The position numbers and the translations under genes were made by a program. A DNA stretch of 64,000 nt, taken from positions 1,053-65,052 of the forward strand of contig CAZBSV010000074.1 of the NCBI GenBank assembly GCA_964494795.1. The letters run 5' to 3'. Shown here in pieces: positions 17,604 through 59,536 of this stretch. The stretch's first letter is position 1; each line of letters opens with the position of its first letter. The notes under the pieces are model-generated. The model saw only the letters and a list, made by a program, of their open reading frames with translations. It did not search any database and was not told the DNA's origin. The DNA is from an uncultured Spirochaetales bacterium (GTDB taxonomy: Bacteria; Myxococcota_A; UBA9160; SMWR01).

Positions 17604-17608
17604 CGAAC

Positions 17609-18199: not shown

Positions 18200-18242
18200 G
18201 CTACCCCTCCGCCCCGACCGACGTCCGCGAAGTACGCCCCGT

Positions 18243-18842: not shown

Positions 18843-18856
18843 CGTCGCGCTCCTTC

Positions 18857-20834: not shown

Positions 20835-21080
20835 CGCCCCCTCCCCCTGCCTGTCGGATGCCAGCGGCTGATGGCTCGAGCCCCAGGTTCGACGTTCGAG
20901 AGTATCGGCGTGCTGTTACGGGGACTTGAGAGAACCTGCGTCCGGTGCATGGTGTGGCGGATCACCGCCTCGGATGCGCAACTAGCCGGCAATCGAGCGG
21001 GCGAGGTGGGGGTATGGGGGCAGGTCTTCGGCCTGGGGCTGCCTCAGGATCCCGCGGAAAATCACCGATACGCAGGCACG

Positions 21081-22439: not shown

Positions 22440-22443
22440 GCGC

Positions 22444-23832
22444 TCAGGCGTCGTCCGAGGAATCGAGCCCGAGCTTCTCGAGTCTATATCGAAACGAGCG
22501 AAAGGAGATGCCAACGAGCTGGGCGGCTCGCTTCTTGACCCCGTTGGCGGCCTGCAGCGCCTCTTTGAGCAGGCTCCGCTCGTACTCGTTGACCATCGCC
22601 TCGAGGTCGATTCCGCCACTGTTCGTGATGCGGCGCGGCTCGCCAAATTCCGCGGGACTCAGCACGACAGGAGGAAGTGACTCGAGGTCGATCACCTCCG
22701 TACGACTGAGCGCAACGGCCCGCTCGACCACGTTCTCGAGTTCCCGGACGTTTCCGGGGAAGCGATACTCACTCAACCTGGCCATCGCCTCATCGCTTGC
22801 GTGCGTGACGGCCTTCTCGAGCTCGGTCGAATATTTCTCGATGAAATGAGTGACCAACAGCGGAATGTCTTCCTTTCGATCCCTCAGTGGAGGGAGCGGG
22901 ATCTCGATCACATTCAGCCGGTAGTAGAGATCTTCTCGAAAGCGCCCAGCGACCACTTCTTCATCCAGGCGCCGGTTGCTGGCTGTGATGATCCTGGCGT
23001 CAGAGCGGGCATCGGTGGATGCGCCCACTCGCCGAAAACATTTTTCCTGGATTGCGCGGAGAAGCTTCACCTGAACCGAAAGCGTCAGTTCGCCGACTTC
23101 ATCGAGAAACAGCGTTCCGCCGTTCGCGACCTCGAATAGCCCCTCTTTGTTCTGAACCGCTCCGGTGAATGCGCCCTTGACGTGGCCGAAGAGCTCCGAC
23201 TCCAGCAGGGTCTCGGGAATCGCCGCGCAATTGACTGCCACGAAGGCCTTGTCGCGACGCGGGCCGCCCTGGTGGATGGCACGCGCGACGACTTCCTTAC
23301 CGGTTCCACTCTCTCCGCTGATCAGTACGTTTGCCTTGCTGTCCGAAACCTGGGCGATGAGTTCACACACGCGCCGGATCACGACGCTGTTCCCGATGAT
23401 GGAGCGGTCGCGGCTCTGGCTCCGCAATTCCCGGCGCAATCTGCGGTTTTCACTCGAAAGAAGTTTCTTCTCGAGCGCTTTTTCCACCACGATCCGAAGC
23501 TCGTCGACCTTGAATGGCTTCGTCACGTAGTCGTAAGCACCTTCTTTCATCGCGCTGATGGCGGTCTCCGTGCTCGCAAACGCGGTGATCATGATGACTA
23601 TGGTCTCGGGCGAGGTCTCGGTTGCCGCGTGAAGAAGATCGATCCCCGAGCGGCCTGGCATCTGAATGTCGGAGATGACGACGTCGAAATCATCACTTTC
23701 AAGCTGAACCAACGCCGTGTCGACGTCGCCTGAGGTGACGACGTCATAGCCCTCGCTCCTGAAGAAGATCTCGAGAAACTCCTGCATGCTGCGTTCGTCA
23801 TCGACGACGAGTATGCGAGCCTTGGCGCTCAA
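22444..23832 (-). CDS. pilR: sigma-54-dependent response regulator PilR
   Basis: REC ([10 protein letters not shown]), [21 protein letters not shown], Fis HTH. Follows pilS with a TTGA overlap. Confidence 0.85.
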
Positions 23833-25532
23833 TCCGAATTCTCCGCTCTCGGTATCCGGAGTCGCACCGTCGTGCCTACGCCCACACTGCTCTCCAGATT
23901 GACCGTTCCGCCGTGCTTCTCGACGATTCGATGGACGGTCGCCAGGCCAAGGCCCGAGCCGTCGCGTTTGGTGGTGAAGAAGGGATCGAATATTCGATCC
24001 AGTTTGTCCGGCGGTACTCCGACGCCGTCATCTGCGACGGCAATCTCCAGCCAGCCGACCCTCTTTTCCCCCTCCCCGCTTCTTCGGTCCTCTTCCGAGC
24101 TCGCTTGAGATCGGCCGACATCCAGAGCCCTGGCGCTGACCTGCAATCGGCCACCGCCAGGCATGGCTTGCACTGCGTTGAGAACCAGATTCCACAAGAC
24201 CTGCCGCAGCTGCGCGGAGTCCGCGAGAGCCGTCAGCTGGTCCTCCAGCGCGACGTCGATCTCGATTCCTTCGGGCTTTGTGGCTTCGAACATCTTGAGA
24301 ACCTCGCCGATCGCCTCTCGGAGCGAGACCGCTTCCAATCGGAGCGGGCCCGGACGCGCGTAGCTCAGGAAATCCGAGATCAGGTGGTTGAGCCGATCCA
24401 CCTCTCGCAACACGATGCCCATCAGCTGTTCCGAATCGATCGAGCCTTCCTCGCCAGCCCTGCCATCCTTCAGCATCTCGATCGAGCCGGATATCGCCGC
24501 CAATGGATTCCGAATCTCGTGCGCGATGCTTGCTGACAGCTCGCCGATCGCCGCGAGGCGCTCGGATTGACGCAGGCTGGTCTCCATCTCCACCACATCG
24601 GTGACATCCTGGAAGATCACCACGTGCCCCTCGGCTTCGGCTTCTCGGTCGCGCAGCGCATAGGCTCCGATGCCGAGGTACCGAAGCGTTCGATCATGAG
24701 CCTGATAGGTCATCCGCCTGCGGGAGCGCGAGCTCTCCTCCGGCAGGAGACCAACGCCAAGCAGGTAATCCGAAATTCCCGGCAGAACCAGCTCCACGTG
24801 TTTTCCGATGACTTCTGCCCGATCCAATTTCGTGATTCTTTCCGCCTCCGAGTTGAATGACGTGATATGTCCGTCGAGGTCTGTCGTCATGAGGCCGCTC
24901 TTGAGGCTCTCCACCGTGCGCTCGTGAAGCGTCTTCAGGCGGCTGAGGTCGCTGGTGCGTTGCACGAGCGCCTCTCCGGTCCGCAGCAATTCCGCCGCAA
25001 GCAAACTCGCTAGCCACGCGACGAGAATGATGCCGGCCGCGTTGACCAGCCACATGCTCAGCAGGACGGGCATCGGTTCCGGCGGCCCAATCTCGTGTAC
25101 TGGGAGCCAACCCTGATGGCCGGCCAGGATCACCAATCCATAGACGGAAGCGCCGGTTACGGCACAGATCATCGCTCCGCGCCGCTCCAGCAGCATGGAG
25201 CCGTATACCGCGATGAGGACGTAGAGGAACGCGAACGGGGAATCGGAGCCGCCCGACAGATGGACGAGCGCACTGACGATTGCGATGTCCGTTGCGATGT
25301 TCAGTACAGAAAAGCGCTGGATTTTTTTGACACGGCGAAAGATCAGCCCGTAGGCAATCGTTGCCACGAAAGCGAAGATCAACGTGCCGTAGAAGCCGCG
25401 CCACTCGGCAGGCGAGTAGCTCCAACCCGCGGCCTCCAGCGCGACGGCGATTCCGAGGCTCAGCAACGAAAGCGCGAGCCGAGCCGCCATCAGGATCAGG
25501 AGTTTCTTCTCGAGTCCATCATCGGCGCTCAA
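23829..25532 (-). CDS. pilS: sensor histidine kinase PilS
   Basis: Multi-TM N-terminus, PAS-like region, H-box SASIAHEIRNPL, HATPase_c (DDGVGV...GSGLGLA). TTG 25532 with GGGGAGAG RBS. Confidence 0.8.
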   Translation of the reverse strand: MSADDGLEKKLLILMAARLALSLLSLGIAVALEAAGWSYSPAEWRGFYGTLIFAFVATIAYGLIFRRVKKIQRFSVLNIATDIAIVSALVHLSGGSDSPFAFLYVLIAVYGSMLLERRGAMICAVTGASVYGLVILAGHQGWLPVHEIGPPEPMPVLLSMWLVNAAGIILVAWLASLLAAELLRTGEALVQRTSDLSRLKTLHERTVESLKSGLMTTDLDGHITSFNSEAERITKLDRAEVIGKHVELVLPGISDYLLGVGLLPEESSRSRRRMTYQAHDRTLRYLGIGAYALRDREAEAEGHVVIFQDVTDVVEMETSLRQSERLAAIGELSASIAHEIRNPLAAISGSIEMLKDGRAGEEGSIDSEQLMGIVLREVDRLNHLISDFLSYARPGPLRLEAVSLREAIGEVLKMFEATKPEGIEIDVALEDQLTALADSAQLRQVLWNLVLNAVQAMPGGGRLQVSARALDVGRSQASSEEDRRSGEGEKRVGWLEIAVADDGVGVPPDKLDRIFDPFFTTKRDGSGLGLATVHRIVEKHGGTVNLESSVGVGTTVRLRIPRAENSD

Positions 25533-25559
25533 GAGAACTCTCCCCGCAGCGGTCCGCCG

Positions 25560-25619
25560 GCTAGCGGGGGAAGCTTCGCTTCCCTGGCGGCGCCCCTCGA
25601 ACCCGTTCCGGGTTCGAGC
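25560..25619. repeat. 60-nt double-hairpin extragenic element, copy 1
   Basis: gctagcgggggaagcttcgcttccctggcggcgcccctcgaacccgttccgggttcgagc. The hairpins are GGGAAGC-TTC-GCTTCCC and CTCGAACCCG-TTC-CGGGTTCGAG. It is 57/60 identical to the reverse complement of 47208..47267. Confidence 0.9.
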
Positions 25620-25627
25620 GGCTTGAA

Positions 25628-26839
25628 TCAGCCGATGGTGTCCGCAATCTTGAAGATCGGCAGGTACATCGCGATCAGCATCGCACCAACGGTGCCTCCG
25701 AGGCCGACCATCATGATGGGCTCCAGCATCGCGGTAAGCGCATCGACCGCAGCGTCCACTTCTTCGTCGTAGAAGTCCGCGATCTTTCCGAGCATCGTCT
25801 CCATCGCTCCGGTTTCTTCGCCCACCGCGATCATCTGAACGACCATTCCAGGGAACACCTTCGACTCGGCTAGCGGCTCAGCGATCGTGCGCCCCTCTGA
25901 AATCGCCGTCCGCACCTTTGCGAGTGCTTCTTCGATTACCACGTTACCCGCGGTCCTCGAGACGATGTCCAATCCATCGAGGATCGGAACACCACTCGCG
26001 ATCATCGTTCCAAGCGTTCTGGTGAATCGCGCGACGGCCACCTTTCGAATCAGGGGGCCAAATACCGGCGCTTTGAGAAAGAGGCTGTCCGTCGCGCGGC
26101 GAAAATTCCGAGATCGCCTCCGCGCCTGGCCGAACGCAATTCCCACCGCCACTACACCCACGAGAAAGATTCCGAGCCACTCTTGCATGAAGTGGCTCAA
26201 GTTCACCACCACTTGCGTCGGCCCGGGAAGTTCACCACCGAAGTCCGAGAACATCTTCTCGAAGGTTGGAATCACCTTCACGAGCAGCAACCCGACGACG
26301 CCGACCGCCACCACGAGGACCGTGGTCGGATAGACCATCGCGCCCTTCACCTTTCGCGCCAGCGCATCGGCTTTTTCGAGGTAGACCGCCAGCCGATTCA
26401 GGATCGTGTCGAGAATACCTCCGATTTCACCCGCCGCGACCAGATTGCAATAAAGGGAATCGAACGGCTTGGGGTGCTTGGAAAGCGCGTCGGCGAACGT
26501 CGATCCCTGCTCGACATCCGAGCGGGTTTCATCGATCGCCAACTTGAACGTCGGGTTATCCTGCTGGTCGCCGAGAATCTTCAGACATTGAACCAGCGGA
26601 AGACCCGCGTCGATCATCGTCGCGAACTGCCGCGTGAAGATCACGAGTTCCTTGGTCTTGATCTTCTTCTTGAGAAAACCAAGATATTCCGAAATGTCCT
26701 TCGCTTTTGCGGCGACCTTGACCGGCGTGAGCATCTGACCGCGAAGCTGCGCCTCGACGGCTTCTTTGCTCACCGCCTCCATGGTGCCCGCTTTCACGGT
26801 TCCTTGTCGCGTCTTACCCTTCCAGGTATAGACCGGCAT
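25628..26839 (-). CDS. pilC: type IV pilus platform protein PilC
   Basis: Two T2SSF repeats (FTRQFATMIDAGLPLVQCL ... FTRTLGTMIASGVPILDGL). GGAGGGGG RBS. Confidence 0.9.
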   Translation of the reverse strand: MPVYTWKGKTRQGTVKAGTMEAVSKEAVEAQLRGQMLTPVKVAAKAKDISEYLGFLKKKIKTKELVIFTRQFATMIDAGLPLVQCLKILGDQQDNPTFKLAIDETRSDVEQGSTFADALSKHPKPFDSLYCNLVAAGEIGGILDTILNRLAVYLEKADALARKVKGAMVYPTTVLVVAVGVVGLLLVKVIPTFEKMFSDFGGELPGPTQVVVNLSHFMQEWLGIFLVGVVAVGIAFGQARRRSRNFRRATDSLFLKAPVFGPLIRKVAVARFTRTLGTMIASGVPILDGLDIVSRTAGNVVIEEALAKVRTAISEGRTIAEPLAESKVFPGMVVQMIAVGEETGAMETMLGKIADFYDEEVDAAVDALTAMLEPIMMVGLGGTVGAMLIAMYLPIFKIADTIG

Positions 26840-26868
26840 CGTCTTTCACCCCCTCCAGTGCTCTTCGA

Positions 26869-27975
26869 TCAACTCTTTCCAGCGGATCGGCGCCCCGCCT
26901 GATTCGCTCCGCCGCTCTGAGTCATGAGGTTTCGGAGCTCGTCAACGTCCGGGCTTCTACTCATGGCGCTTTCCATCGAAATCAGCCGCCGTTGATGGAG
27001 CGACGCCAACGATTGGTTCATCGTCTGCATGCCAAACTTCTCCTGGCCGACCTGCATCGACGAATAGATCTGATGGATCTTGTCTTCGCGGATCAAGTTG
27101 CGAATCGCTGCATTCGGAATCATCACTTCGAGCGCCATCGCGCGACCGGGTCCATTTGCTTTCGGAAGCAGCGCCTGACACAGAACACCTTCCAGCACGA
27201 AGGAGAGCTGAGCTCGAATCTGCGCCTGCTGGTACGGCGGAAACACGTCGACCACGCGATTGATCGTCTGGACAGCCGAATTCGTGTGCAGCGTCCCGAA
27301 AGCGAGGTGCCCCGTTTCGGCGACGGTCAATGCAGCCTCGATCGTCTCGAGGTCCCGCATCTCGCCGATCAGAACGACGTCCGGGTCCTGACGCAGGATG
27401 TACTTGAGAGCCAGTTTGAAACTCGCGGTATCGGCACCCACCTCACGTTGATTGACGATGCAACCCTTGTGCGGGTGTAGATACTCGATCGGGTCCTCGA
27501 TCGTCACGATGTGCTCGTTGCGCTCCTGGTTGATCTTGTTGACGATCGCTGCGAGCGTCGTCGACTTTCCCGAACCCGTCGGGCCCGTGACCAGGATCAG
27601 GCCTCGGGGCCTCTCGCTGAGCTCGCTCACGATCTTCGGAAGGCCGAGATCTTCGACGCTCGGAATCGTGTACGGGATCGCCCGAAACGCCCCTGAAACG
27701 TTGCCGCGCTGAATGAAGACGTTTCCGCGGAAGCGCGACAATTTTTGCACGCTGAACGAAAGGTCGAGCTCGTTGTTCTCCTCGAAGCGGTGCTTCTGGG
27801 CGTCCGTCAGAACCGAATAGCAGAGTTGCTTGGTTTCGGGAGGCGAAAGTGGCGGCATCCGCAATGGATGCAGCTTTCCATCGATCCGAAGCTGCGGCGA
27901 CGTGCCCGTGGTGATGTGAAGGTCGCTCGCGCCCTTCTCGATCATCGCCTTTAGTAGTTGATGCATGTTGGCCAT
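26869..27975 (-). CDS. pilT: twitching motility retraction ATPase PilT
   Basis: GASDLHI, GPTGSGKSTT, IVTIEDPIE, GEMRD, GHLAFGTLHTNSA, AIRNLIRE motifs. Confidence 0.9.
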   Translation of the reverse strand: MANMHQLLKAMIEKGASDLHITTGTSPQLRIDGKLHPLRMPPLSPPETKQLCYSVLTDAQKHRFEENNELDLSFSVQKLSRFRGNVFIQRGNVSGAFRAIPYTIPSVEDLGLPKIVSELSERPRGLILVTGPTGSGKSTTLAAIVNKINQERNEHIVTIEDPIEYLHPHKGCIVNQREVGADTASFKLALKYILRQDPDVVLIGEMRDLETIEAALTVAETGHLAFGTLHTNSAVQTINRVVDVFPPYQQAQIRAQLSFVLEGVLCQALLPKANGPGRAMALEVMIPNAAIRNLIREDKIHQIYSSMQVGQEKFGMQTMNQSLASLHQRRLISMESAMSRSPDVDELRNLMTQSGGANQAGRRSAGKS

Positions 27976-27984
27976 TGCGGGCTC

Positions 27985-29685
<1,701 letters not shown>

Positions 29686-29841
29686 GGACCGCCTGCCTCC
29701 TGATCCCGACGCGACGCCCCAGCCGCAGACGCCGAATCCAGCGGCGCGCGATGGGGAATCGCAACGATCCCTGCCCCACTGCCCCATGCCGTGGAATTCG
29801 TCGGGAACCCGCCGGGTTATCGGCGGCACGCAAGATGGGCT

Positions 29842-48797: not shown

Positions 48798-50057
48798 GTG
48801 CGCATCGCGCTGCTCAGCTATCGCGGAAATATGTACTGCGGCGGGCAGGGAATCTACGCCGCCGCACTCGCGGGCGAGTGGAAGCGCGCCGGGCATGACG
48901 TGCACGTCTTTGCGGGCCCGCCCCTGCCCCAGCTCGCGCCGGACATTCCGCTGCACGAAATTCCGAACGACAACGTGTTCGGACAAAAATATCCGGACTT
49001 CGTCGATCCCCGGTCGCCGTTCTCGCTCTTCAAACCGATGAGCCTGTGGGAACTCGGGGTCTCGCGCTTCGGCGTGTTTCCGGAGATGCACAGCTTCGGA
49101 ATGCGACTGATGCTGCGCTGGCCGCGTATCCAGGAACGCCATCGCTTCGACATCGTCTTCGACAACCAATGCCTGAGTTGGGGGTTGCTCGGCATCCGGG
49201 CCATGGGAGTCCCGGTCGTCTCGGTGATCCACCACCCGCTCCACATCGACCGCGAAGCCGATTTTGCGATCGACCGACGCCTGTCGAAGCGCATCCAGCG
49301 AACGCTCTACTTCCCGCTCTGGATGCAACAGCAGGTCGCGCCGCGGCTCGACAAGATCGTGACGGTCAGCCAGGCGTCGAGAGCGGCGATCGAGCGCTAC
49401 TTCGGGATCCCCGAAAAAGACATCGCGGTGGTCTACAACGGAACCGACACCGAGACGTTCCGGCCGCTCGACGGCATCGAAAAACAGCACGATCTGCTGT
49501 TCGTCGGACGCACCGAAGATCGCAAGAAGGGCGTCCAAGACATGCTCGAAGCGCTCAGCCTGCTGCCCGACTGCGTGCGACTGAAGATCATCGACGGCCG
49601 GATCCCGAAGGACGGACTGGTGCCTCGCGCCATCCGCCGGCACGGACTCGAGCAACGCGTCACGATCGTCGACCGGATGCTCGAGGTCCGCGAACTCGTC
49701 GAACAATACGCGAGCGCGCGGATCGCGTTGGTTCCGTCCTACTTCGAGGGCTTCGGCTTCCCGGCGAGCGAAGCGATGGCGTGCGGCTTGCCGGTCGTCG
49801 CCAATGCGGCGGGAGCGCTCCCGGAAATCGTGGGCAGCGATGGCGAAGCCGGCTGCTTGGTAGCGCCGCGAGATGCGCGCGCGATGGCGAAAGCGATCTT
49901 GGATATCCTCTCCGAGCCCGGACGCGCGGAGCGGATGGGCCGCAACGCACGCCGAAGGATCCAGCACGCGTTTCGCTGGAGTGACGCGGCGGCCGGACTC
50001 AGCGCCGTATTCGAGGAAACGATTCGTGCTGCTCACAGTCGATCTCGAGCGACTTAG
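48798..50057 (+). CDS. GT4-family (GT-B fold) glycosyltransferase, paralog 1
   Basis: N-terminal SYRGNMYCGGQGIY motif. C-terminal FEGFGFPASEAMACGLPVVANAAGALPEIV (EX7E-type region). Confidence 0.8.
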   Translation: MRIALLSYRGNMYCGGQGIYAAALAGEWKRAGHDVHVFAGPPLPQLAPDIPLHEIPNDNVFGQKYPDFVDPRSPFSLFKPMSLWELGVSRFGVFPEMHSFGMRLMLRWPRIQERHRFDIVFDNQCLSWGLLGIRAMGVPVVSVIHHPLHIDREADFAIDRRLSKRIQRTLYFPLWMQQQVAPRLDKIVTVSQASRAAIERYFGIPEKDIAVVYNGTDTETFRPLDGIEKQHDLLFVGRTEDRKKGVQDMLEALSLLPDCVRLKIIDGRIPKDGLVPRAIRRHGLEQRVTIVDRMLEVRELVEQYASARIALVPSYFEGFGFPASEAMACGLPVVANAAGALPEIVGSDGEAGCLVAPRDARAMAKAILDILSEPGRAERMGRNARRRIQHAFRWSDAAAGLSAVFEETIRAAHSRSRAT

Positions 50058-50748
50058 AGTTCGCTCCGGCGAGCGGATCCTCGACGCGGGCTGCGGCGAG
50101 GGACGCCACTGCCTCGGCGCGCTCGAGCGCGGCGCGCACGTCGTCGGCCTCGATCTCGACCGCAATGCACTCAACGCCGGCGCGCACAACCTGCGCGAGC
50201 GCGCCGAGAAGTGCGGCCGTCTCGGTGCGATGATTCGCGGAAATACGCTGCGGCTTCCGTTTGCGGATGGGGCGTTCGACAAGGTCATCTGTTCCGAGGT
50301 GATGGAGCACGTCCACGACTTCCGGGCAGCCGCGCGCGAACTCGCTCGCGTCACGCGCCCGGGTGGCTGGTTGGCGGTGACGATCCCGACCGCCACGAGC
50401 GAGCATCTCTATCTGCGGGTCGGCGACGACTACTTCGAATCCCCGGGTGGTCACATCCGCATTTTTCGACCGCGGCAATTGGCACTCGGCCTCGCGGAGG
50501 CCGGATTTGCGACGGTGGGTGTCGGATTCGCCCACGCGCTTCACACCCCATATTGGCTACTCCGCTCGATCGCGGGCTTGTCGCGCGCGGACGACAGCGC
50601 GCTCGTCCAGCTCTACCGGAGGTTCCTGCTGCGCGCGACGGAGTCGATCTTCCTCACTCGCCTCGAGCGGCTGCTCAACTACTGCTTCCCGAAAAGCCTG
50701 ATCCTCTACGCCGAAAAGCGCGGGCCGTGCGCGCTTCGCAGCCGCTGA
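50026..50748 (+). CDS. class I SAM-dependent methyltransferase
   Basis: GTG 50026 with GAGGAA RBS, overlapping the GT gene end by 32 nt. ILDAGCGEGRH, FDKVICSEVMEHV, RPGGWLAVTIP. Confidence 0.75.
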   Translation: MLLTVDLERLRVRSGERILDAGCGEGRHCLGALERGAHVVGLDLDRNALNAGAHNLRERAEKCGRLGAMIRGNTLRLPFADGAFDKVICSEVMEHVHDFRAAARELARVTRPGGWLAVTIPTATSEHLYLRVGDDYFESPGGHIRIFRPRQLALGLAEAGFATVGVGFAHALHTPYWLLRSIAGLSRADDSALVQLYRRFLLRATESIFLTRLERLLNYCFPKSLILYAEKRGPCALRSR

Positions 50749-50749
50749 A

Positions 50750-52150
50750 GTGGAGCCCGCGCCGAGCGAGCGCCGCGACACGGATTCGCAACCACGCCCC
50801 CAGGCGCCGCTGCGGATCTGCTTCATCGCGTACCGCGGAAACATGCACTGCGGTGGACAGGGCGTGTATCTCTGGTTCCTCGTGCGCGAACTCGCGCGTC
50901 TCGGCCATCGGGTCGACGTGCTCGTCGGCCCCCCCTATCCGGATCCGATGCCCTTCGCGAATTCCACGACCGCGCTGCCCAACGAGCAGTTCTGGGGCAA
51001 GTGGTTCCTCGGCGAGCGGCAGCGCTTCATCCCGAAACCCCACCCGCTGCGAATCTTCGAGCCGCTCAACTTGTACGAACTCGCCGCGAGCTACTTCGGA
51101 TTCTTGCCGGAGCCGTTCGCGTTCAGCCTGCGCGCGTATCGCGAAATCGCGGCTCGAACCCGCGCGGGCATACGCTACGACCTCGTTCACGATGTCCAAT
51201 GCCTCGGATATGGGACGCTCGGGATCCGCAAGCTGGGCATTCCCGTCGTCAGCACCGTCCACCATCCACTCACGATCGACCGGCGCGCCTCGTTCGCGCG
51301 CGACCAGAGTCTGCGCGAAGCCATCGGCACGACGAGCTTCTACCCGGTGAGCATGCAGGGGTTCGTGGCGCGGCGACTCGACGGCCTCTTCACGTCCTCG
51401 GCGGCGAGCGCGCGCGAAATTGAGCGGGATTTTCGCGTGCGCGCCGAGCGCATCCGAATGGTCGCGAACGGCGTCGACACACGGCTCTTTCGGCCGGCGC
51501 CCGGCATCGAACGGGACGCGAACGAGATCCTCTGCGTGGGCCGGGCCTCCGATCCCAACAAGGGCATCGGAAATCTGATCGAGGCGCTCGCGCGCCTACC
51601 GCGCCAGATTCGGCTCACGCTCGTCGACGACGATCACCCCAACAACCCGGCGCGCGAACGCGCCAGGCGCCTCGGCTGTGCGGACCGGCTCTGGATCACG
51701 GGCCGGATCGAGAATGACGACCTGGTGCGGCGCTACCAACGCGCGTCGCTCGTGGTCGCGCCCTCGCGCTACGAGGGATTCGGGCTGCCCGCCGTCGAAG
51801 CGATGGCGTGCGGCACCCCCGTCGTCGCATTCGCGGCCGGCGCACTGACGGAAGTGATCCGCGCCACCGGCGGCGGCGTGCTCGTGCCGCCGGACAAACC
51901 CGAAGCGCTGGCTCGCGCAATCGCCGATTTGATCGCGCGACCCGAACTCTGCGCGATGCTCGGCAAGCGCGGCAGCCTCCGCGTCGGCGAAACCTATGCC
52001 TGGCCGCGCGTTGCACGCGCCACCGCAGCCGCGTATGTGGAAATCATCAACGTTTTTCAGCAGCGTCGAGGTCGGCCCGCGAGGACGACGACGTCCGAGA
52101 GCCCGGGCAGCCGGCGCGCCATACCGTCGAGCCCCTCGAGCAGCGCGTGA
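50750..52150 (+). CDS. GT4-family glycosyltransferase, paralog 2
   Basis: AYRGNMHCGGQGVY N-terminal motif, YEGFGLPAVEAMACGTPVVAFAAGALTEVI. Its C-terminal tail overlaps the convergent methyltransferase gene by 94 nt. Confidence 0.8.
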   Translation: MEPAPSERRDTDSQPRPQAPLRICFIAYRGNMHCGGQGVYLWFLVRELARLGHRVDVLVGPPYPDPMPFANSTTALPNEQFWGKWFLGERQRFIPKPHPLRIFEPLNLYELAASYFGFLPEPFAFSLRAYREIAARTRAGIRYDLVHDVQCLGYGTLGIRKLGIPVVSTVHHPLTIDRRASFARDQSLREAIGTTSFYPVSMQGFVARRLDGLFTSSAASAREIERDFRVRAERIRMVANGVDTRLFRPAPGIERDANEILCVGRASDPNKGIGNLIEALARLPRQIRLTLVDDDHPNNPARERARRLGCADRLWITGRIENDDLVRRYQRASLVVAPSRYEGFGLPAVEAMACGTPVVAFAAGALTEVIRATGGGVLVPPDKPEALARAIADLIARPELCAMLGKRGSLRVGETYAWPRVARATAAAYVEIINVFQQRRGRPARTTTSESPGSRRAIPSSPSSSA

Positions 52151-52836
52151 GCGAGCGGAGCCGGCAAACGGTCGAGTGAGCGCGACCAGCCTGGCATCCC
52201 CCAGCCGATCGAAATTCCCTCGACGATCTCGAGCTCGAGGGAGCGGCGCGCCTGCTCGCGCATCAAGGCGATCTCGTAGCGGGTGAAGTGGTCGCTCGGA
52301 ACGTCGTAGTGGCGCCGCCCGCGCCGCAGCGATTTTCCGAGCAAGCCCTCCTTGAGTGCATCGACTCCGCGCGCGACCCGGCACGCGAGCGATTCGAAGT
52401 TGGCGATCGCGAGCACCACGCGCCCTGCGTTACGGGTTACGCGCGCCATTTCGGCGATGGCATCGAGGGGTCGATCGAAGTGATCGAGCGCTCCCTTGCA
52501 GATCACGCCGTCGAAGCTGCGATCTCGAAACGGCAGCGCGTCCGACCAGCTGCGAACCCAAGCCGGCGCGGGGCCACGCGATTTCTCGGCCTGCAGGCAA
52601 GCGAGAGCCGACATCCGCTGCGAGGGCTCGGCGCCAACCGCCCACGAACCCCGCTCCGAAATTGAAATTGCGTCCTGGCCGAAACCGCTCGCCACGTCCA
52701 GCACGCGCGTCGCGCGACCCGGTCGCACGAGGTCGAGACTGCGCGCCGTCATTCGCTCGAACAGGTACGCGCTGTCGCGGGTCGTCCCCGTTGGCACCAC
52801 GTCGCGCATATCGCGATCGAGATCTGCAACTCTCAA
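52057..52836 (-). CDS. class I SAM-dependent methyltransferase
   Basis: VLDVASGFGQDA, FDGVICKGALDHF, RNAGRVVLAIAN. Start is TTG 52836 or ATG 52809. Confidence 0.7.
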   Translation of the reverse strand: MRVADLDRDMRDVVPTGTTRDSAYLFERMTARSLDLVRPGRATRVLDVASGFGQDAISISERGSWAVGAEPSQRMSALACLQAEKSRGPAPAWVRSWSDALPFRDRSFDGVICKGALDHFDRPLDAIAEMARVTRNAGRVVLAIANFESLACRVARGVDALKEGLLGKSLRRGRRHYDVPSDHFTRYEIALMREQARRSLELEIVEGISIGWGMPGWSRSLDRLPAPLAHALLEGLDGMARRLPGLSDVVVLAGRPRRC

Positions 52837-52926
52837 GCCGGAGCGAGTCTAGCCCGGCGCCTCAGGGGCGGCAGACGGGGCCGCAGTTCGCGCCCTAAAC
52901 GGTTGATTCCAATACGCTGTCAGGCT

Positions 52927-54255
52927 ATGAAGTCGACTCGCGCGCTTGGGCGCAGAGCCCCGAGCAGTATGCTCAACGGACGCATGGCCGAAACCGCACC
53001 CGCAAAATCGGGTCTATTATCCGGATCGTCGGCCGAGACCCCGGAGACGCATCTCGGTGGCCTCCGCTCGTTCCGAATCATTGGCCTTTCGATCGTCGCG
53101 TTCGCAGCGGTCTACGTCGTCAGTCTCGACGTGACCGAAATCATGCTCCAGCGTCACTTTGCGCGGCAGATCGAACACGCTCTTCACGTCAGTCCCACGG
53201 GCGGCCCAATCACTTCGCAGATCCAGGCGCGCATCCGCTGGCTGCTGGACAACTCCCAGTGGATTCAACTCGGCGAGGTGCGCGTCAGCGTCCACGTCTA
53301 CGCCGCCGACGGCATCACCCCGCTCTACCTCGAAGATCGCTTCATCCCGACGCCCGAGACCCTTGACCCCGTCGCGAGCATGACCGAGGCGGTCCGACTG
53401 CTGCCCGCGAGCTACTCGCTCGATGTTGCGGTCCCGCCGCGGGGAACGCTCGCAATCGCGATGCTGTTCTCATACGGCGCGATCTTGATCACCTCCCTCT
53501 TCTTCTACAACCGCGCGGTCACCATCCGCGACAGCCGGCTGCTGGCGTCCGCGTTGGCCGAGCGAGAATCCACCGCGCGGCGCACCGAAACGATCGCCGA
53601 CGAACTCAAAGAGGTGCGCGAGCGACTCGGCAAGATCGAGCCCAGCGAGCGCTCGCAAGCCGAAGAAATTCGCGAGCTCCAGCGCGAGCGGCAGCTTCTG
53701 GGCGGAAAGCTTGTGGACCTCGCGGAGCGGGAGGCCGAACTGCGCCGCACCGCGGAGCGTTCGATCGAACTCGACCAGGAGCGGCAGGCCCTCGAAGATC
53801 TGCTCGAGGAAGCCAGCGGTGACCTCACGAGCAAGGATGACGAGATCCGGGATCTTCAGGTGCGCCTGAAATCGGCCTCGAAGAACGCCGAAGCCCGCAG
53901 CGGTGGGCGCACCCGCGCAGCCGAACAATGGGCCCGCAGGTTCCGCACCCTCTACAAGAGCGTGGAGTTCGACGACCGCGTGATCCATGACCTGCTGTCT
54001 CTCGGAGACGAGACCACGAAGCTCAAAGCCGAAGAGGGAATCAAACGCCTGGCCGACGACTCCGACCTCACCGCGATCCGTCGCAAGGTCGGCGGCCTGC
54101 CACCGCAGCTCTCGATCTACGAACTCGGATTCGCGGGCAAAGGACGCATCTACTACACGCGCGGCCGCAATCTACGCTGTCGTGTGCTGGTCATCGGCGC
54201 AAAGAATAGTCAGAAGACCGATCTGGAGTACCTGAGTCGGCTTCCCTCCGACTAG
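52927..54255 (+). CDS. two-TM membrane protein with long coiled coil and C-terminal RelE/ParE-superfamily (HigB / addiction-module-killer-like) domain
   Basis: TM helices FRIIGLSIVAFAAVYVVSL and LAIAMLFSYGAILITSLFFY. A charged heptad-rich segment of about 170 aa. C-terminus VEFDDRVIHDLL...LSIYELGFAGKGRIYYTRGRNLRCRVLVIGAKNSQKTDLEYL. The start is uncertain (TTG 52903, ATG 52927/52969). Confidence 0.6.
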   Translation: MKSTRALGRRAPSSMLNGRMAETAPAKSGLLSGSSAETPETHLGGLRSFRIIGLSIVAFAAVYVVSLDVTEIMLQRHFARQIEHALHVSPTGGPITSQIQARIRWLLDNSQWIQLGEVRVSVHVYAADGITPLYLEDRFIPTPETLDPVASMTEAVRLLPASYSLDVAVPPRGTLAIAMLFSYGAILITSLFFYNRAVTIRDSRLLASALAERESTARRTETIADELKEVRERLGKIEPSERSQAEEIRELQRERQLLGGKLVDLAEREAELRRTAERSIELDQERQALEDLLEEASGDLTSKDDEIRDLQVRLKSASKNAEARSGGRTRAAEQWARRFRTLYKSVEFDDRVIHDLLSLGDETTKLKAEEGIKRLADDSDLTAIRRKVGGLPPQLSIYELGFAGKGRIYYTRGRNLRCRVLVIGAKNSQKTDLEYLSRLPSD

Positions 54256-54700
54256 CCTTTCCCGTGACGCCCATCAGCTGACGCAGGGTCGCCTTCAGCT
54301 TTGCGTCGTCCCAGGGTTTCGTGACGAGCGCGCGGATGCCGATCTCCGCGAGGCGCTCGGGCGGAATCTCCTGGGTCCAACCCGTGATCAGCATCCGAAT
54401 CGCATCGGGACTCGACTCCGCCGCTCGCTCGAGCAACTGGACACCGCTCATGCCGGGCATCTTGTGATCGGAGAGGATCGCGTCGACGCTGCGCTCGGCG
54501 AGAACCCGCAACGCAGCTGCCGCACTTTCGACAGCGACGATCTCGTAGCCCTCGCGGCGAAGTGACCGCTTCAGCGCGGAGAGGATCTGGGCTTCGTCGT
54601 CGACGAGCAGGAGTGTGGGCCGAGTCGATCCTGTTTTGACTTTCGATCCGGCCTTGCCCTTCAATCCGCGCCCCTTTCTCGGTCCGCACCCGGAAGCCAT
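54191..54700 (-). CDS. single-domain CheY-like response regulator
   Basis: LLLVDDE, ILSDHKMPGMSG, LITG, VTKPW. 65-nt convergent overlap with the preceding plus-strand gene. The start overlaps the kinase gene end. Confidence 0.8.
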   Translation of the reverse strand: MASGCGPRKGRGLKGKAGSKVKTGSTRPTLLLVDDEAQILSALKRSLRREGYEIVAVESAAAALRVLAERSVDAILSDHKMPGMSGVQLLERAAESSPDAIRMLITGWTQEIPPERLAEIGIRALVTKPWDDAKLKATLRQLMGVTGKASRREADSGTPDRSSDYSLRR

Positions 54701-56286
54701 ACCGTGAACCGGGTTCCCACACCGGGTTCGCTGTCGGCCACGAGACTGCCGCCGTGGCGTTCGACGATGTTGAAACTCGTCGACAACCCCAGGCCGGTAC
54801 CGACCCCGACTTTCTTCGTGGTGAAGAACGGATCGAAGATCCGGCCCATGTGTTCGGGAGCGATTCCCACCCCCGTATCCCTCACGATGATCGCGACGCC
54901 GCCCGCCCGGGGCTCCGTCTTCAGCCAGATCGTTCCCGTCTTTCCGCTGTCTCCAATCCGCTCTTCGACGGCCTGATAAGCGTTGACGAGCAGGTTCATG
55001 AACACCTGCTGCAGCTGCATCGGGTAACAGTAGACGGCGGGAAGGTTGCGATACTCCTTCTCGAGCTGCACCAGGTGTTTCATCATCGGCCAGACGATGC
55101 CCGCCGTCGAATCGAGGAACTGGTTGACGTCCGCCAATACGCGGTGCTCGCTGTCGCGGTGCGAGAAATCGCGCAGGTCGTGAACGATGTGGCGAATCCG
55201 CTCGGATCCCTCTTGCGACTCGCGAATTGCCTTGGCGAAATCGGAGAGCACGAACGCGACATCGAGTTCCTTGGCAGCCGCAGTCAGCGCACTCGAACTG
55301 CGTTGGATCTCGGCGAGATCCGCACCCGCCACGGCTGCCTGCAGCGCATCGACTTCGCGCCAGGCGCGCTGCAGGTCACCCAGGTACTCGGCCATCTGGA
55401 ACAGATTTGCGTGAATGAATCCCATCGGATTGTTGATCTCGTGGGCGACGCCGGCAGCGAGCTGCCCGATCGAGGCCATCTTCTCCGTCTGCAGGACTTT
55501 GCGCTGCAATAGCTTTATTTCGGTGAGATCCGAGAATACGGCGACGGCGCCGAGCTTGGCGCCCGCGCTATCGAAGACCGGCGCGCTGGAGATTCCGATC
55601 GGCACGCTCGTCCCGTCGGCTCGCGTGAGGGTCATCTCCATCCCCTTGAAGCGCTCCCCGGTTTCGAGCGTGCGCGCGACGTGATTCTGATCGCGCGGAA
55701 CCCCGCGGAAGCAGCTCTCGATCAGCTGCCCGCGCAATTGCTCCGCGTTCGCACCGAGGATCTCCTCGGCCGGAGGGTTCGAGAAGGCGATCCGGCCCTC
55801 GAGATCGACCACCAACAGCGCGCTATTCAAGTTTTGGATGATGTTCTGGTTGTAGCTCTCGAGGTCGCGGATCCGACGCTCCGCGACTCCCTGGTCGCGA
55901 GCCGCTCGCCAGCGCTGAATCTGCTCCAACGCAACCACGGGCAGCACGTCCGAAAATTCCTCGCCCGCAACCACGCAATCCGCCGCGCCTCGCCGGAAGG
56001 CTTCGAGCGCGGCTTCCTCACTCGGGCTGCAGTGGACCACGATCACCGGCGGGCCATCGACCTTGAATGCTTCGAGCAAATCCCAGCATTCGGAACCGAG
56101 CGCCGACTCCACGACGATCAGGTCGACCGGCGCATCCCGGCATCGGCCGCGGCAGGCAGCCGCATCGCGCACGGTCTCGATCGCTGCGCCCGGACCCAAC
56201 CGGCGCAGGGCCATGCCGGGGTCCGGCCCGGCGGACTGCGCGGAGCGCGCAACGATGATCCGAACTCCGGCGCGCGCTCGCTCCAC
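54661..56286 (-). CDS. histidine kinase with N-terminal pseudo-receiver, PAS, HisKA and HATPase_c domains
   Basis: The REC-like N-terminus has E at the acceptor position (DLIVVESAL). PAS-like region (LNSALLVVDLEGRIAFSN), H-box AAGVAHEINNPM, N/G boxes (LLVNAYQA; DTGVGI; GTGLGLS). Confidence 0.85.
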   Translation of the reverse strand: MERARAGVRIIVARSAQSAGPDPGMALRRLGPGAAIETVRDAAACRGRCRDAPVDLIVVESALGSECWDLLEAFKVDGPPVIVVHCSPSEEAALEAFRRGAADCVVAGEEFSDVLPVVALEQIQRWRAARDQGVAERRIRDLESYNQNIIQNLNSALLVVDLEGRIAFSNPPAEEILGANAEQLRGQLIESCFRGVPRDQNHVARTLETGERFKGMEMTLTRADGTSVPIGISSAPVFDSAGAKLGAVAVFSDLTEIKLLQRKVLQTEKMASIGQLAAGVAHEINNPMGFIHANLFQMAEYLGDLQRAWREVDALQAAVAGADLAEIQRSSSALTAAAKELDVAFVLSDFAKAIRESQEGSERIRHIVHDLRDFSHRDSEHRVLADVNQFLDSTAGIVWPMMKHLVQLEKEYRNLPAVYCYPMQLQQVFMNLLVNAYQAVEERIGDSGKTGTIWLKTEPRAGGVAIIVRDTGVGIAPEHMGRIFDPFFTTKKVGVGTGLGLSTSFNIVERHGGSLVADSEPGVGTRFTVWLPGADRERGAD

Positions 56287-56420: not shown

Positions 56421-56500
56421 TTGGCTGGACTCGGTTCACCCTGGTCAGCCTCGGATCGCCCTGGTCAGCCTCGGATCGCCCTGGTCAGCCTCGGATCACC
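56421..56500. repeat. 20-nt tandem repeat, 3 exact-phase copies plus 1 degenerate
   Basis: ctggtcagcctcggatcgcc at 56441, 56461 and 56481, preceded by a degenerate copy. It lies in the 209-nt spacer between the activator gene stop (which it overlaps) and the kinase gene start. Confidence 0.85.
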
Positions 56501-57920
56501 GTGGCTGGGTGCGAATCTTCGAGGCGATGTCGTGCTTGGCGAGTTTGCGGTAGAAGGTGCTGCGCCCAATTCCAAGCATATTCGCAGCCGCGCTGGCGTC
56601 CCCCGCGCATTCCGCCAGCGCGCGCTCGAGCGCGCATCTCTCGTAGGCGTCCAGGGAAATCGGTAGGCTCGTCGGAGCGAGCGCCGAAACGGCTCGCGTC
56701 GCGGGTCGATTGATCGCGAGATCCGAGACGCGCAGACGCGGCCCGCGCGCGAGCGCCATCGCCGACTCGATGATGTTCTCGAGCTCGCGAACGTTGCCCG
56801 GCCAATCGGATGCCATCAGAAGTTCGAGCGCTCTCTCTTCGATGCCCTCGACGCGCGAATTCTCATCTGCGTGCTTGCGGAGAAAATGCTGCACGAGCAG
56901 CGGAATGTCCTCGCGCCGCTCCCGAAGCGGAGGGATCACGATCCGAACCACGTTGAGTCGATAGAAGAGATCCGTTCGAAACCGACCTTCCTCCACCATC
57001 GTCGCCAGATCGCGATGGGTCGCCGAAATCACGCGAATGTCGACGGGGACCGCACTCGCCGCGCCCACGGGCCGAACCTCTTTCTGCTGCAGGGCTCGCA
57101 GCAACTTCGCCTGGACGGCGGGCGGGATCTCGCCGATCTCGTCGAGAAAAAGGGTCCCGCGGTTCGCGATCCGGAACAGGCCTGGCGCACCAACCGCACC
57201 GGTGAATGCACCCTTTTCATGCCCGAACAACTCGCTCTCGATGATGCTCTCCGGCAGCGCCCCGCAGTCGACGGGAACGAAGTCGCCTCCCGATCGCGGG
57301 CTCGCGGCGTGAATCCCGCAGGCCACCAACTCTTTGCCGGTTCCACTCTCCCCCTGCAGCAGAACATGACTCTCGTTGTGCCGGAGGCTGTGAATCTTGC
57401 TCGCAAGAGTACGCATCGCCGGCGAATTGCCGACGAGCGCCGGGATCGAGGCGCGCGCGCGCAGCTCCGTTTCGAGTTCCCGGTTGCGGCGGACCAACCT
57501 GCGCCGCTCGATCGCCTTGCGCACGGTCGTCTGGATCCGATGCACGTCATCGAACGGCTTTTCGAGATAGTCGAAGGCGCCTTTTCGGATGCAACCGACC
57601 GCGCTCTCGATACTGCCGTGACCGGTCATGACGATCACTTCGATTTCGGGGCGCGCGCTCTTGATCTGCTCGAGCAGTGCGAGCCCGCTGACCGGTCCGA
57701 GCAAAAGGTCCACCAGGGCGACGTCGAGGCGCGGATCGGAGAGATGCGGCGTCGCCTCGCTCACGGACTGCGCGAGCGCGGTTTCGTAGCCCGCGCGCTC
57801 GAGAACGCGCTTGAGCGACTGGAGCAACAGCGGCTCGTCGTCGACCAACAGAACGAAGCCCGAGGCTTCGGGCGCCGAGAAGCGGCGTGCGTCGGGCGAT
57901 TCCGCGCTCGCAGGTGTCAT
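56496..57920 (-). CDS. sigma-54-dependent NtrC-family response regulator
   Basis: REC (VALVDLLLG), [21 protein letters not shown], Fis HTH (AANMLGIGRSTFYRKL). ATG 57920 is preferred over TTG 58001. Confidence 0.85.
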   Translation of the reverse strand: MTPASAESPDARRFSAPEASGFVLLVDDEPLLLQSLKRVLERAGYETALAQSVSEATPHLSDPRLDVALVDLLLGPVSGLALLEQIKSARPEIEVIVMTGHGSIESAVGCIRKGAFDYLEKPFDDVHRIQTTVRKAIERRRLVRRNRELETELRARASIPALVGNSPAMRTLASKIHSLRHNESHVLLQGESGTGKELVACGIHAASPRSGGDFVPVDCGALPESIIESELFGHEKGAFTGAVGAPGLFRIANRGTLFLDEIGEIPPAVQAKLLRALQQKEVRPVGAASAVPVDIRVISATHRDLATMVEEGRFRTDLFYRLNVVRIVIPPLRERREDIPLLVQHFLRKHADENSRVEGIEERALELLMASDWPGNVRELENIIESAMALARGPRLRVSDLAINRPATRAVSALAPTSLPISLDAYERCALERALAECAGDASAAANMLGIGRSTFYRKLAKHDIASKIRTQPR

Positions 57921-57955
57921 GGAAGTCGTATCGGTCCCGAATTCGGGACGCTTGA

Positions 57956-59536
57956 ATGCCGAGGTCGGGGTCTCTAAGATACCCGGCGCCCCCTCCGCCA
58001 AGCGGAGTCAACCCACTGCGCAGCTCCAACATTCTCGTCGTCGATGACGAGGAACTCTATCGGCGAGCCCTCGAGCGCATTCTCGTCCGCGCCGGGCACC
58101 AGGTTGCCACCGCGCGAGACGCGATGGCGGCGCTCAGCCTCGTCTCGAGTCAGCCGACCGACCTCGTCCTGGCCGATATCCGGATGCCGGGCATCAACGG
58201 CCTCGAATTGGTGCGACAGATCCACGAGATTGCGCCGGATCTGCCCTGCATCGTCATCACCGGGCATGGCAGCCCCGAAAGCTCGGTGGAGGCGCTGAAG
58301 GCCGGAGCCTACTGGTACCTCGAAAAGCCCTTCGACCAGGGGCATCTCGATGTCGTTCGCAGGCTCGTCGAGCAGGCCATCGAGCACGGCCGACTCAAGT
58401 CTGAGAATCGAATGCTCCAGGGTCAGCTGCGTTCGCGGTATCGATTCGAGAACATCATCGGCACCAGCGCCGCGCTGCGCGGCGTGCTCGAAACCGTTTC
58501 GAAAGTGGCCGCTTCGGACAGCACCGTCCTCATCACGGGTGAGAGCGGAACCGGCAAGGAACTCGTCGCGCGCGCGATCCACTTCAACAACAAGCGGGCG
58601 GACAAGATGTTCGTAACCGTCAATTGCGGGGCGATCCCGGAAGAACTTCTCGAGTCCGAACTGTTCGGCCACGTTCGCGGCGCCTTCACGAACGCGGTCG
58701 CCAACCGCGAAGGCCGATTCTCCGTCGCCCACGAGGGAACGATCTTCCTCGACGAAATCGGCGACATGAGCCCCACCTTGCAGGTGAAGTTGTTGCGCGT
58801 ACTGCAGGATCGGACGTTCGAGCCCGTCGGTTCATCGAAGACCCAAAGCGTCGACGTGCGCGTGATCGCCGCCACCAACCAGAATCTCGACGAAGCGATC
58901 GCGCAGCGCCGCTTCCGCGAGGATCTCTACTATCGACTCAACGTGATTCCGATCGTGGTTCCTCCGCTGCGAGATCGCCGCGACGACATCCCGCTGCTCG
59001 CGCAGCACTTCTTGAACCTCGCCAACGAGGGCCGAGGCGAGCGGGCCGTGGAATTCTCCGACGAAGTCATCGCGCGATTGGCAGAATTCGACTGGCCCGG
59101 AAACGTGCGTGAACTCGAAAACCTCGTGGAGCGCATGGTCACGCTCTGCTCGGGCCGTGAAATCGTCGCGAGTGACCTTCCGAAGTCGCTGCAGAAGAGC
59201 GCTCCGCCGCGCCCGTCGGCGCCGCAGATCCCACCCCAAGGCTTGAGCTTTCGGGACGTCGTGGACCAGTTCGAATCGGACCTGATTCGCCAGGCACTCG
59301 AAATCACCCACGGCAACAAGAACCGCGCCGCGCAGCTGATCCAGATGAATCGCACCACGATGCTCGAGAAGATGAAGAAGAAAGGCGTCAAGTTCGATGC
59401 GGGGTCGAGCGATTCAACACGAGTGGACGGAACGCTTCGCGCCGAGGCTGCCGATCCGCGCGAAGTCGACGGGTTCGCAAACACGACCGCTGGCAGCGAA
59501 GCCGGCGACTCGCCAAACCCGCGGCGCACGCACTGA
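57956..59536 (+). CDS. sigma-54-dependent NtrC-family response regulator with variant GAFTNA loop
   Basis: REC (LVLADIRMPGING), [21 protein letters not shown], Fis HTH (GNKNRAAQLIQMNRTTMLEKMKK). Divergent from the previous activator with only a 35-nt spacer. Confidence 0.85.
   Translation: MPRSGSLRYPAPPPPSGVNPLRSSNILVVDDEELYRRALERILVRAGHQVATARDAMAALSLVSSQPTDLVLADIRMPGINGLELVRQIHEIAPDLPCIVITGHGSPESSVEALKAGAYWYLEKPFDQGHLDVVRRLVEQAIEHGRLKSENRMLQGQLRSRYRFENIIGTSAALRGVLETVSKVAASDSTVLITGESGTGKELVARAIHFNNKRADKMFVTVNCGAIPEELLESELFGHVRGAFTNAVANREGRFSVAHEGTIFLDEIGDMSPTLQVKLLRVLQDRTFEPVGSSKTQSVDVRVIAATNQNLDEAIAQRRFREDLYYRLNVIPIVVPPLRDRRDDIPLLAQHFLNLANEGRGERAVEFSDEVIARLAEFDWPGNVRELENLVERMVTLCSGREIVASDLPKSLQKSAPPRPSAPQIPPQGLSFRDVVDQFESDLIRQALEITHGNKNRAAQLIQMNRTTMLEKMKKKGVKFDAGSSDSTRVDGTLRAEAADPREVDGFANTTAGSEAGDSPNPRRTH

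Follow-up and report, generated by a model that had tools for sequence, protein, structure and literature searches.

We analysed a gene in a 64,000-nucleotide (nt) stretch of contig CAZBSV010000074.1 from an uncultured Spirochaetales bacterium placed by GTDB in the Myxococcota_A; this whole stretch is referred to as the window. The gene, located at 52969..54255 on the plus strand, encodes 428 amino acids (aa) followed by a stop codon, and is best described as coding for a domesticated, membrane-tethered protein with a RelE/Gp49-like domain. An initial annotation of the same region had proposed a membrane-anchored coiled-coil protein ending in a RelE/HigB-like toxin domain with no antitoxin gene beside it, and each of these elements was recovered here. 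We regard it as very probable that the gene represents a RelE-like family and that it stands outside the toxin-antitoxin (TA) systems. Judged from its sequence, the protein most likely serves as an effector that is tethered to the membrane and aimed at RNA or the ribosome, and it seems that a toxin fold has here been taken over for housekeeping or regulation at the membrane.

The kinship of the C-terminal domain (residues 316-428 when counted from the ATG at 52969; 53914..54252) with RelE/ParE toxins was assessed by profile comparison and by structure prediction. An hhalign comparison with the single sequence of E. coli RelE aligned the β1-α1 motif alone, at a probability of 1.6%, and an alignment at the level of families was therefore needed. 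When the domain family was compared with the family of phage N15 gp49, hhalign returned an E value of 4.4e-5 and a score of 32.5 over 88 columns, which is essentially the entire domain. The scores of 150 column-shuffled gp49 alignments had a mean of 12.2, a standard deviation of 2.4 and a maximum of 19.9, so that the real score lies ~8 standard deviations above these controls and the RelE-like sequence pattern goes well beyond chance; a reversed profile scored 12.4 and the unrelated periplasmic domain 13.1. We also aligned 34 diverse copies of the domain and scanned them against three libraries of hidden Markov models (HMMs). Matches below threshold were obtained to TIGR02683 in 23 of the 34, to PHROG 3445 'toxin' in 21 and to Gp49 of Pfam (PF05973) in six, and hardly any other family recurred. 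The best family member matched the Gp49 and TIGR02683 models with E values of 2e-4 to 4e-4, and the domain of the window protein matched TIGR02683 (RelE/ParE family toxin) with an E value of 0.017 and 15.5 bits, the cut-off being 62.85.

Structure prediction gave a consistent picture. An AlphaFold model of the domain alone (predicted local distance difference test score, pLDDT, 82.5) adopts a RelE topology with the element order helix-β1-α1-α2-β2-β3-β4-α3, and the RelE/ParE order of secondary-structure elements is predicted in the full-length model as well. In Foldseek searches against the PDB, the domain model was matched at a probability of ~1.0 and a target TM-score of 0.55-0.72, with an E value of only ~1e-3. 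Both models retrieved S. aureus YoeB, T. thermophilus and E. coli RelE, YafQ, S. pneumoniae HigB, V. cholerae HigB2, ParE and the CARF-RelE protein Cami1, and the matches at a probability >0.9 were nearly all RelE/ParE toxins, the exceptions being a handful of TrmO chains and a single insecticidal toxin. Altogether, on the strength of recurrent profile matches and predicted folds, the domain is a remote but genuine member of the RelE/ParE superfamily (BECR fold), nearest to its Gp49/HigB branch.

We next mapped the pocket residues through the hhalign register onto the HigB-TAC ribosome structure and counted them over 424 unique domains of the family. HigB-TAC has a catalytic pocket that comprises K58, E66, R68, N73, R77, F93, K95, Q98 and K99, among which R68, R77 and K95 have been equated with RelE K54, R61 and R81 (PMC9098466). 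E66 corresponds here to E385 (422/424), R77 (RelE R61) to R393 (424/424), K95 (RelE R81) to K412 (423/424) and Q98 to Q415 (421/424), and R372/K373 form a K58-like pair (423 and 422 of 424). Near-invariant positions further include R324, Y329, E355, Y395 and G410. The domain has a mean net charge of +6 and is better conserved than any other part of the protein: its identity is 0.77 among Myxococcota, 0.52 among Desulfobacterota and 0.38 across the two phyla, compared with ~0.55, ~0.3 and ~0.2, respectively, for the remaining regions. As far as conservation can tell, the pocket is strongly selected yet departs from the textbook form; the domain is likely to bind RNA or ribosomes, and catalysis is plausible.

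The layout of the protein was derived from a full-length AlphaFold model (mean pLDDT 81, built on a more diverse alignment than the domain-only model) together with hydropathy, and it recovers the four parts that had been read from the translation at the outset. All features lie on the plus strand. The N-terminal cytoplasmic tail (residues 1-34; 52969..53070) is disordered, with pLDDT <50 for residues 1-25, and poorly conserved (identity 0.30 within Myxococcota). Transmembrane (TM) helix 1 (residues 35-53, FRIIGLSIVAFAAVYVVSL, with R33 and R36 before it; 53071..53127) is indicated by hydropathy windows >1.6 and by an AlphaFold helix spanning residues 29-71. It leads into a periplasmic α/β domain of ~105 aa (residues 54-160; 53128..53448; pLDDT 86-96; element order H-H-E-E-H-E), for which searches of PDB, Pfam and Foldseek gave no match to a known family. 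This domain is collinear between the Myxococcota and Desulfobacterota proteins and is presumed to be a sensor or interaction domain. TM helix 2 (residues 161-180; 53449..53508), supported by hydropathy and by the onset of a continuous helix from residue 160 to 300, is followed by the cytoplasmic segment NRAVTIRDSR and by a charged cytoplasmic helix of ~120 aa (53509..53868), which we read as a coiled-coil stalk. The model predicts a single helix that ends at residue 300 and for the most part has pLDDT >90, in agreement with tethering to the membrane through a coiled coil, and the HMM matches of the stalk are weak and of coiled-coil type only (SMC, Rad50, UPF0242). Within the stalk lies an acidic motif, ERQALEDLLEEA (53779..53814), with invariant columns in the cross-phylum alignment; E271 and E276 are invariant in both phyla, the Desulfobacterota form of the motif reads 'NEEEM..EI..LE..L', and the remaining stalk is only ~20% identical between the phyla. 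A flexible basic linker (residues 301-315; 53869..53913; pLDDT <50 for residues 298-314), the least conserved of all regions, connects the stalk to the C-terminal α/β domain. Basic residues flank both TM helices and thus place both ends of the chain, its stalk and its C-terminal domain in the cytoplasm and the ~105-aa domain in the periplasm. The product is accordingly a bitopic-hairpin inner-membrane protein with both its N- and C-termini in the cytoplasm.

The open reading frame (ORF) at 52903-54255 on the plus strand is uninterrupted and constitutes one gene, with a GC content of 0.78 at third codon positions and a codon-position GC pattern of coding type in a genome of 64% GC. A hidden frameshift or stop that would split the ORF into two genes, the artefact against which the initial annotation had cautioned, is excluded because >1000 full-length homologues (51-81% identity) share the same collinear layout. 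The ATG at 52927 proposed initially is possible, but homologues favour either the ATG at 52969, where the database protein P0001 (428 aa, 100% identical to the window protein) begins, or the ATG at 52984, a conserved 'MAE' start used by most of them; a TTG at 52903 is a further alternative. No clear Shine-Dalgarno sequence was found at any of the candidate starts, and searches for a sigma-70-like promoter or terminator signal gave nothing exceeding shuffled expectation.

To define the family we searched for homologues. The >1000 full-length homologues have a uniform layout. When 1.84 billion representative proteins were queried exhaustively by phmmer, using just the C-terminal domain, only 191 proteins matched, nearly all of which carry it at the C-terminus of a chain of 370-430 aa. 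Short phmmer matches, considered as possible free-standing copies of the domain, turned out to be gene fragments on short contigs. A second, more distant group of proteins of ~380 aa (~40% identity in the domain) shows the same succession of TM helix, periplasmic domain, TM helix, coiled coil and C-terminal domain, and its periplasmic domain is collinear with the one in the window protein. We also scanned species-representative genomes for G-R-x-Y...G-[TA]-K-N-[TS]-Q by means of a degenerate DNA pattern, which gave at least 120 loci; the domain stood at the end of such an ORF in 120 of the 120 loci listed, all from Desulfobacterota, mostly Desulfobacterales, and Myxococcota. Among the cultured carriers are Desulfoluna spongiiphila, D. 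limicola, Desulfonatronovibrio hydrogenovorans and Desulfamplus magnetovallimortis. The same pattern had zero matches in 2.9 million viral contigs. Source annotations of the homologues read 'hypothetical protein' or reflect coiled-coil artefacts (SbcC ATPase, Zn-ribbon protein, myosin), and one IMG entry reads 'putative component of toxin-antitoxin plasmid stabilization module'. The Desulfobacterota homologue P0314 has a precomputed Pfam match, PF28006.1. The gene thus belongs to an uncharacterised family of fixed architecture in Desulfobacterota and Myxococcota.

The absence of an antitoxin gene noted initially extends well beyond the window. No antitoxin-like neighbour of the helix-turn-helix (HTH), ribbon-helix-helix (RHH) or Phd type was found either in the window or in the inspected neighbourhoods of ~125 related loci, in which the small conserved neighbours were identified as rpsF, rpsR, rplI, receiver (REC) proteins or antisense artefacts. 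With regard to the hallmarks of type II TA systems, the domain is not stand-alone but was found solely as the C-terminal part of membrane proteins of 370-450 aa, its synteny is conserved and viral contigs lack a match. The gene is not a TA module.

Comparison with known systems places the protein close to several of them and identical to none. Gp49/HigB toxins, the closest family, resemble the domain in predicted fold, secondary-structure order, collinear profile match and basic character, and share the motifs F-E-L, G-R-x-Y and K-x-T/S-Q as well as the conserved equivalents of E66, R77, K95 and Q98. They differ in being free-standing proteins of 90-120 aa with a downstream HTH antitoxin, neither of which applies here; in our family the equivalents of R68, F93 and K99 are not conserved, scores stay below the curated HMM thresholds and the domain has an additional conserved helix at its N-terminus (R324...Y329), and the gene is chromosomal and syntenic rather than borne on phages or plasmids. 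The nearest described membrane case is ToxM, which consists of an N-terminal toxin domain, one TM helix and a periplasmic region that is disordered and carries a C-terminal domain as its cap, and is co-transcribed with an upstream RHH or HTH antitoxin, ToxR (Gerdes, 2025; PMC11980606). Both proteins combine a RelE/ParE-superfamily domain on the cytoplasmic face of the inner membrane with a periplasmic domain, but the protein described here has its domains in the opposite order, two TM helices, a long coiled coil and no upstream antitoxin. Multidomain BECR proteins for which no antitoxin could be identified were excluded from that analysis (PMC11980606). The literature yielded no description of a TM-coiled-coil-RelE fusion, in line with the remark in the initial annotation that no such system was known to it.

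The closest working principle is found in Cami1 (PDB 8phj), an ancillary effector of type III CRISPR systems in which a CARF sensor is joined to a RelE fold without an antitoxin and a signal gates the ribosome-targeting RelE activity in cis, as we propose here. Cami1 is, however, soluble and defence-linked, with a cytoplasmic CARF domain that binds cyclic oligoadenylate, whereas the presumed sensor of our protein is periplasmic or membrane-embedded and its gene context is one of envelope and regulatory genes. A functional analogy can be drawn with eukaryotic IRE1 and regulated IRE1-dependent decay, which also combine a membrane anchor, a lumenal sensor and a cytosolic RNA-cleaving domain and whose action on mRNAs translated at the membrane would be matched by that predicted here. 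No homology is involved, as the RNase of IRE1 is a KEN domain coupled to a kinase.

In the window, the neighbours are those described initially. A single-domain (CheY-like) response regulator, recognised in the ORF list and by a family scan, is convergent with the gene (54191..54700, minus strand) and overlaps its 3' end by exactly 65 nt (54191-54255); a PAS histidine kinase (54661-56286) and a sigma-54-dependent response regulator (56496-58001), both on the minus strand and identified by NCBIfam and Pfam matches, follow. The overlap recurs in the related locus L001 but is absent in L003 and L004, in which the genes lie 14 nt apart, and is therefore not a conserved feature. Convergent transcription with the response regulator could matter, and a functional link between the two genes is suggested by conserved position by itself. 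Upstream lies a block of genes for a GT4 glycosyltransferase, a methyltransferase, another GT4 enzyme and a divergent methyltransferase (48798..52836), which is present in all Myxococcota loci with enough upstream sequence. The Myxococcota order, from this block through the gene to the CheY-like protein, the PAS kinase and the sigma-54 regulator, is invariant even between genomes with only ~52% identity in this protein, and a convergent downstream two-component gene occurs in 19 of the 20 loci with enough sequence. Beyond these follow another sigma-54 regulator, a sigma factor of the FliA/WhiG type, a PP2C phosphatase and a further receiver protein. Upstream of the GT4 block, L001 carries genes for an APH-like kinase, an NTP-transferase and AnmK, of the cell-wall sugar recycling type.

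The surroundings in Desulfobacterota have other constituents. In 37 of 45 loci the gene immediately upstream, on the same strand and typically at a gap of ~60 nt, encodes a lipoprotein of ~760 aa with multiple tetratricopeptide repeats (TPRs). The downstream side is variable and includes an ExeA/MshM-like ATPase fused to an OmpA domain, topA and rpsF-rpsR-rplI; a co-directional set of receiver, kinase and sigma-54 activator in 14 of 59 loci; and in some loci (L127, L050) an MshE-PilM/N/O-secretin-pseudopilin cluster directly after the gene. PEP-CTERM proteins, adjoining the gene or near it, are encoded within seven short loci, which hints at a link to an exosortase system. Genes of this kind (VPEP, a hydrophobic stretch and a basic tail) were seen in L081 (6965-7687), L120 (6911-7594), L125 (6219-6959) and L126 (7845-8954 and 13232-14110). 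These neighbourhoods recall the XrtA/PEP-CTERM set PrsK-PrsR-PrsT (Haft, 2006; PMC1569441) and the accessory genes MshM/MshN of MSHA-type pili: the TPR lipoprotein passes the PrsT cut-off, the ATPase is ExeA/MshM-like, and sigma-54 activators, PEP-CTERM proteins and MshE-PilMNO-secretin genes lie nearby. Unlike the members of those sets, however, the protein itself matches none of the families, and the window protein gave no match to the XrtA/PEP-CTERM models of NCBIfam (TIGR029xx/TIGR030xx). The ExeA-like ATPase scores under the TIGR03015 cut-off, the TPR match is non-specific, and an identity of the adjoining kinases and activators as PrsK and PrsR was rejected, all of them falling below the cut-offs and being generic NtrC/AtoS-like proteins. 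We read this context as that of a vertically inherited cellular gene tied to envelope, surface-polymer or pilus biogenesis and regulation, and not that of a TA or defence cassette.

Elsewhere in the window, ~25 kb upstream of the gene, we observed a type IV pilus cluster (14556-29829) with PilM/N/O-like ORFs, a secretin-like ORF of 1018 aa and PilB/PilT/PilC-like ORFs, within which lies a pair of kinase and sigma-54 regulator genes (22444-25532). An ORF at 6314-7375 on the minus strand has an N-terminus, HHFRLSGDPFRNEP, that resembles ATPases of the ExeA/GspA/MshM type, and a gene of this type follows the homologue in several Desulfobacterota loci.

As the best explanation of the protein as a whole we favour an antitoxin-free, membrane-tethered RelE-like effector that is regulated within the same polypeptide, a view whose chances we consider evenly balanced. 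The basic RelE-like domain would be an mRNA endonuclease that binds the ribosomal A site, or at least a ribosome or RNA binder, and a stalk of roughly 18 nm would hold it at the membrane. Control would be exerted in cis, by the same polypeptide, in place of a separate antitoxin. The periplasmic domain would supply the signal, in Desulfobacterota probably together with the co-encoded multi-TPR lipoprotein, and the signal would be relayed through TM helix 2 and the stalk, possibly with the help of the acidic stalk motif. It is tempting to speculate that the E271/E276 motif is a candidate docking site in cis for the basic domain, mimicking the acidic antitoxin helices of TA pairs, and that the ~120-residue stalk and the 15-residue linker give the domain access to ribosomes that translate at the membrane. 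The setting may be envelope biogenesis (surface polysaccharide, PEP-CTERM proteins, MSHA-type pilus or secretion) beside sigma-54 two-component regulators, and the output would be local translational control of envelope-destined mRNAs. That the domain is an active, signal-gated mRNase we put forward tentatively, with somewhat less assurance than the tethered effector as such. A more specific version, by analogy a bacterial counterpart of IRE1-type decay, is unlikely in our estimation; in it a periplasmic assembly signal (from pilus, secretin or exopolysaccharide, together with the TPR lipoprotein) would make the domesticated RelE-type nuclease pivot on its stalk to enter the A site of membrane-bound ribosomes and there cut or stall envelope mRNAs, a toxin fold thereby serving housekeeping ends in the absence of an antitoxin.

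Several observations weigh against this explanation. The first group concerns the pocket. With respect to the RelE catalytic residues, whose conservation the initial annotation had left to be checked, the equivalents of R61 and R81 are virtually invariant but that of K54 is lost: HigB-TAC R68 (RelE K54) corresponds to G387, a position occupied in the family by G, V, I, L, E or D and hence non-basic; F93 corresponds to G410, an invariant glycine, so that the phenylalanine is not kept; and K99 corresponds to position 416, which is variable. Catalysis is thus possibly lost or altered. The second concerns the assignment itself, which draws on remote homology and predicted structure, the family remaining below the curated HMM thresholds (Pfam PF05973, NCBIfam TIGR02683). 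The third concerns the regulatory and envelope links. Upstream of the gene, the Myxococcota loci showed no conserved match to a sigma-54 promoter, two-component genes are very common in both phyla, and cross-phylum orthology of the adjoining REC-only regulators found no support, their similarity being merely at the generic REC level. The multi-TPR lipoprotein exceeds the NCBIfam cut-off for PrsT but those for MamA and PilW too, which makes the name only indicative, and the link to envelope and sigma-54 genes, coming from gene neighbourhood only, is suggestive.

The main rival is a catalytically dead RelE fold reused as a scaffold or anti-factor to dock ribosomes, RNA or a partner such as the neighbouring response regulators or secretion and pilus parts at the membrane. 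The substitutions in the pocket speak for this possibility, in particular as a single alanine at R68 or K99, and likewise at K58, abolishes the toxicity of HigB-TAC (PMC9098466). A harmless domain would also be the easiest explanation for the missing antitoxin, and ParE shows that the same fold can act without RNase chemistry (PMC11980606). We nevertheless think it rather unlikely, although clearly less so than the other rivals. The near-exceptionless residues R393, K412, Q415, E385 and R372/K373 line the Gp49-type RNA-binding and catalytic pocket, the domain is strongly basic, and a pure protein-protein interface is not expected to keep this residue set across two phyla.

A defence or abortive-infection toxin, ToxM-like or a fused TA pair, silenced in cis or by an unrecognised antitoxin and triggered by phage or foreign DNA at the membrane, is much less likely than the dead fold and improbable overall. 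Multidomain proteins of the RelE/ParE family are often linked to defence and ToxM has been proposed as a membrane-associated BECR toxin (PMC11980606), Cami1 provides a precedent for a RelE domain gated by a fused sensor, and the conserved acidic stalk motif could serve as a built-in inhibitor. Against this, a search of PADLOC-DB returned only weak coiled-coil matches of the stalk to JetC, LmuB and PbeC and none for the C-terminal domain, and the viral contigs had no match. The gene order beside housekeeping and envelope genes stays invariant at 51-81% identity, one architecture recurs in each of at least 120 species-representative loci listed, and no HTH or RHH partner was seen in the neighbourhoods examined, whereas patchy distribution and variable islands are normal for defence genes. 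Defence, one of three options that the initial annotation had offered, is therefore less favoured because of the stable chromosomal context.

Much the same can be said, with still greater doubt, of a domain unrelated to RelE, in which a convergent small α/β fold would carry a coincidental motif. Every HMM match lies under its curated cut-off, the Pfam scan of the window domain gave no match, HMMER profile searches of PDB sequences with the domain returned no toxin, only a spurious aminopeptidase and the TRIM25 coiled coil, and the Foldseek E values are modest and the structures predicted. Chance resemblance is very improbable nonetheless, given the collinear 88-column match to gp49 far above the shuffled controls, the recurrence of one toxin family in three independent HMM libraries for most of the diverse members, two independent models whose high-probability matches are nearly all RelE/ParE-superfamily toxins, and motif positions that fall on known functional residues. 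A ParE-like gyrase poison is the least credible alternative; ParE is among the Foldseek matches and one family member weakly matches Pfam ParE_toxin, but the sequence signal is specific to the Gp49/HigB branch, which is ribosome-dependent (PMC11980606), the equivalents of RelE R61 and R81 are invariant, and the tether fits membrane-bound ribosomes better than gyrase.

The membrane-tethered RelE-like effector, whether active or not, bears on how toxin folds are used in these bacteria. Domains of the RelE/ParE family are familiar chiefly as small toxins under the control of an antitoxin or as effectors of defence, and Desulfobacterota are major marine sulfate reducers. Here, in a chromosomal membrane protein of fixed architecture, conservation is strongest in a toxin-type domain, and the family has neither an antitoxin nor a link to mobile elements. 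For a widespread gene known to databases as one for a 'hypothetical protein', with coiled-coil-derived annotations that are misleading, the present analysis supplies a name and a hypothesis that can be tested. If the domain is inactive, the family would be a clean case of a toxin fold that has become a binding module; if it is active, it would represent a membrane-localised, signal-gated control of envelope-protein translation and a clear case of toxin domestication.

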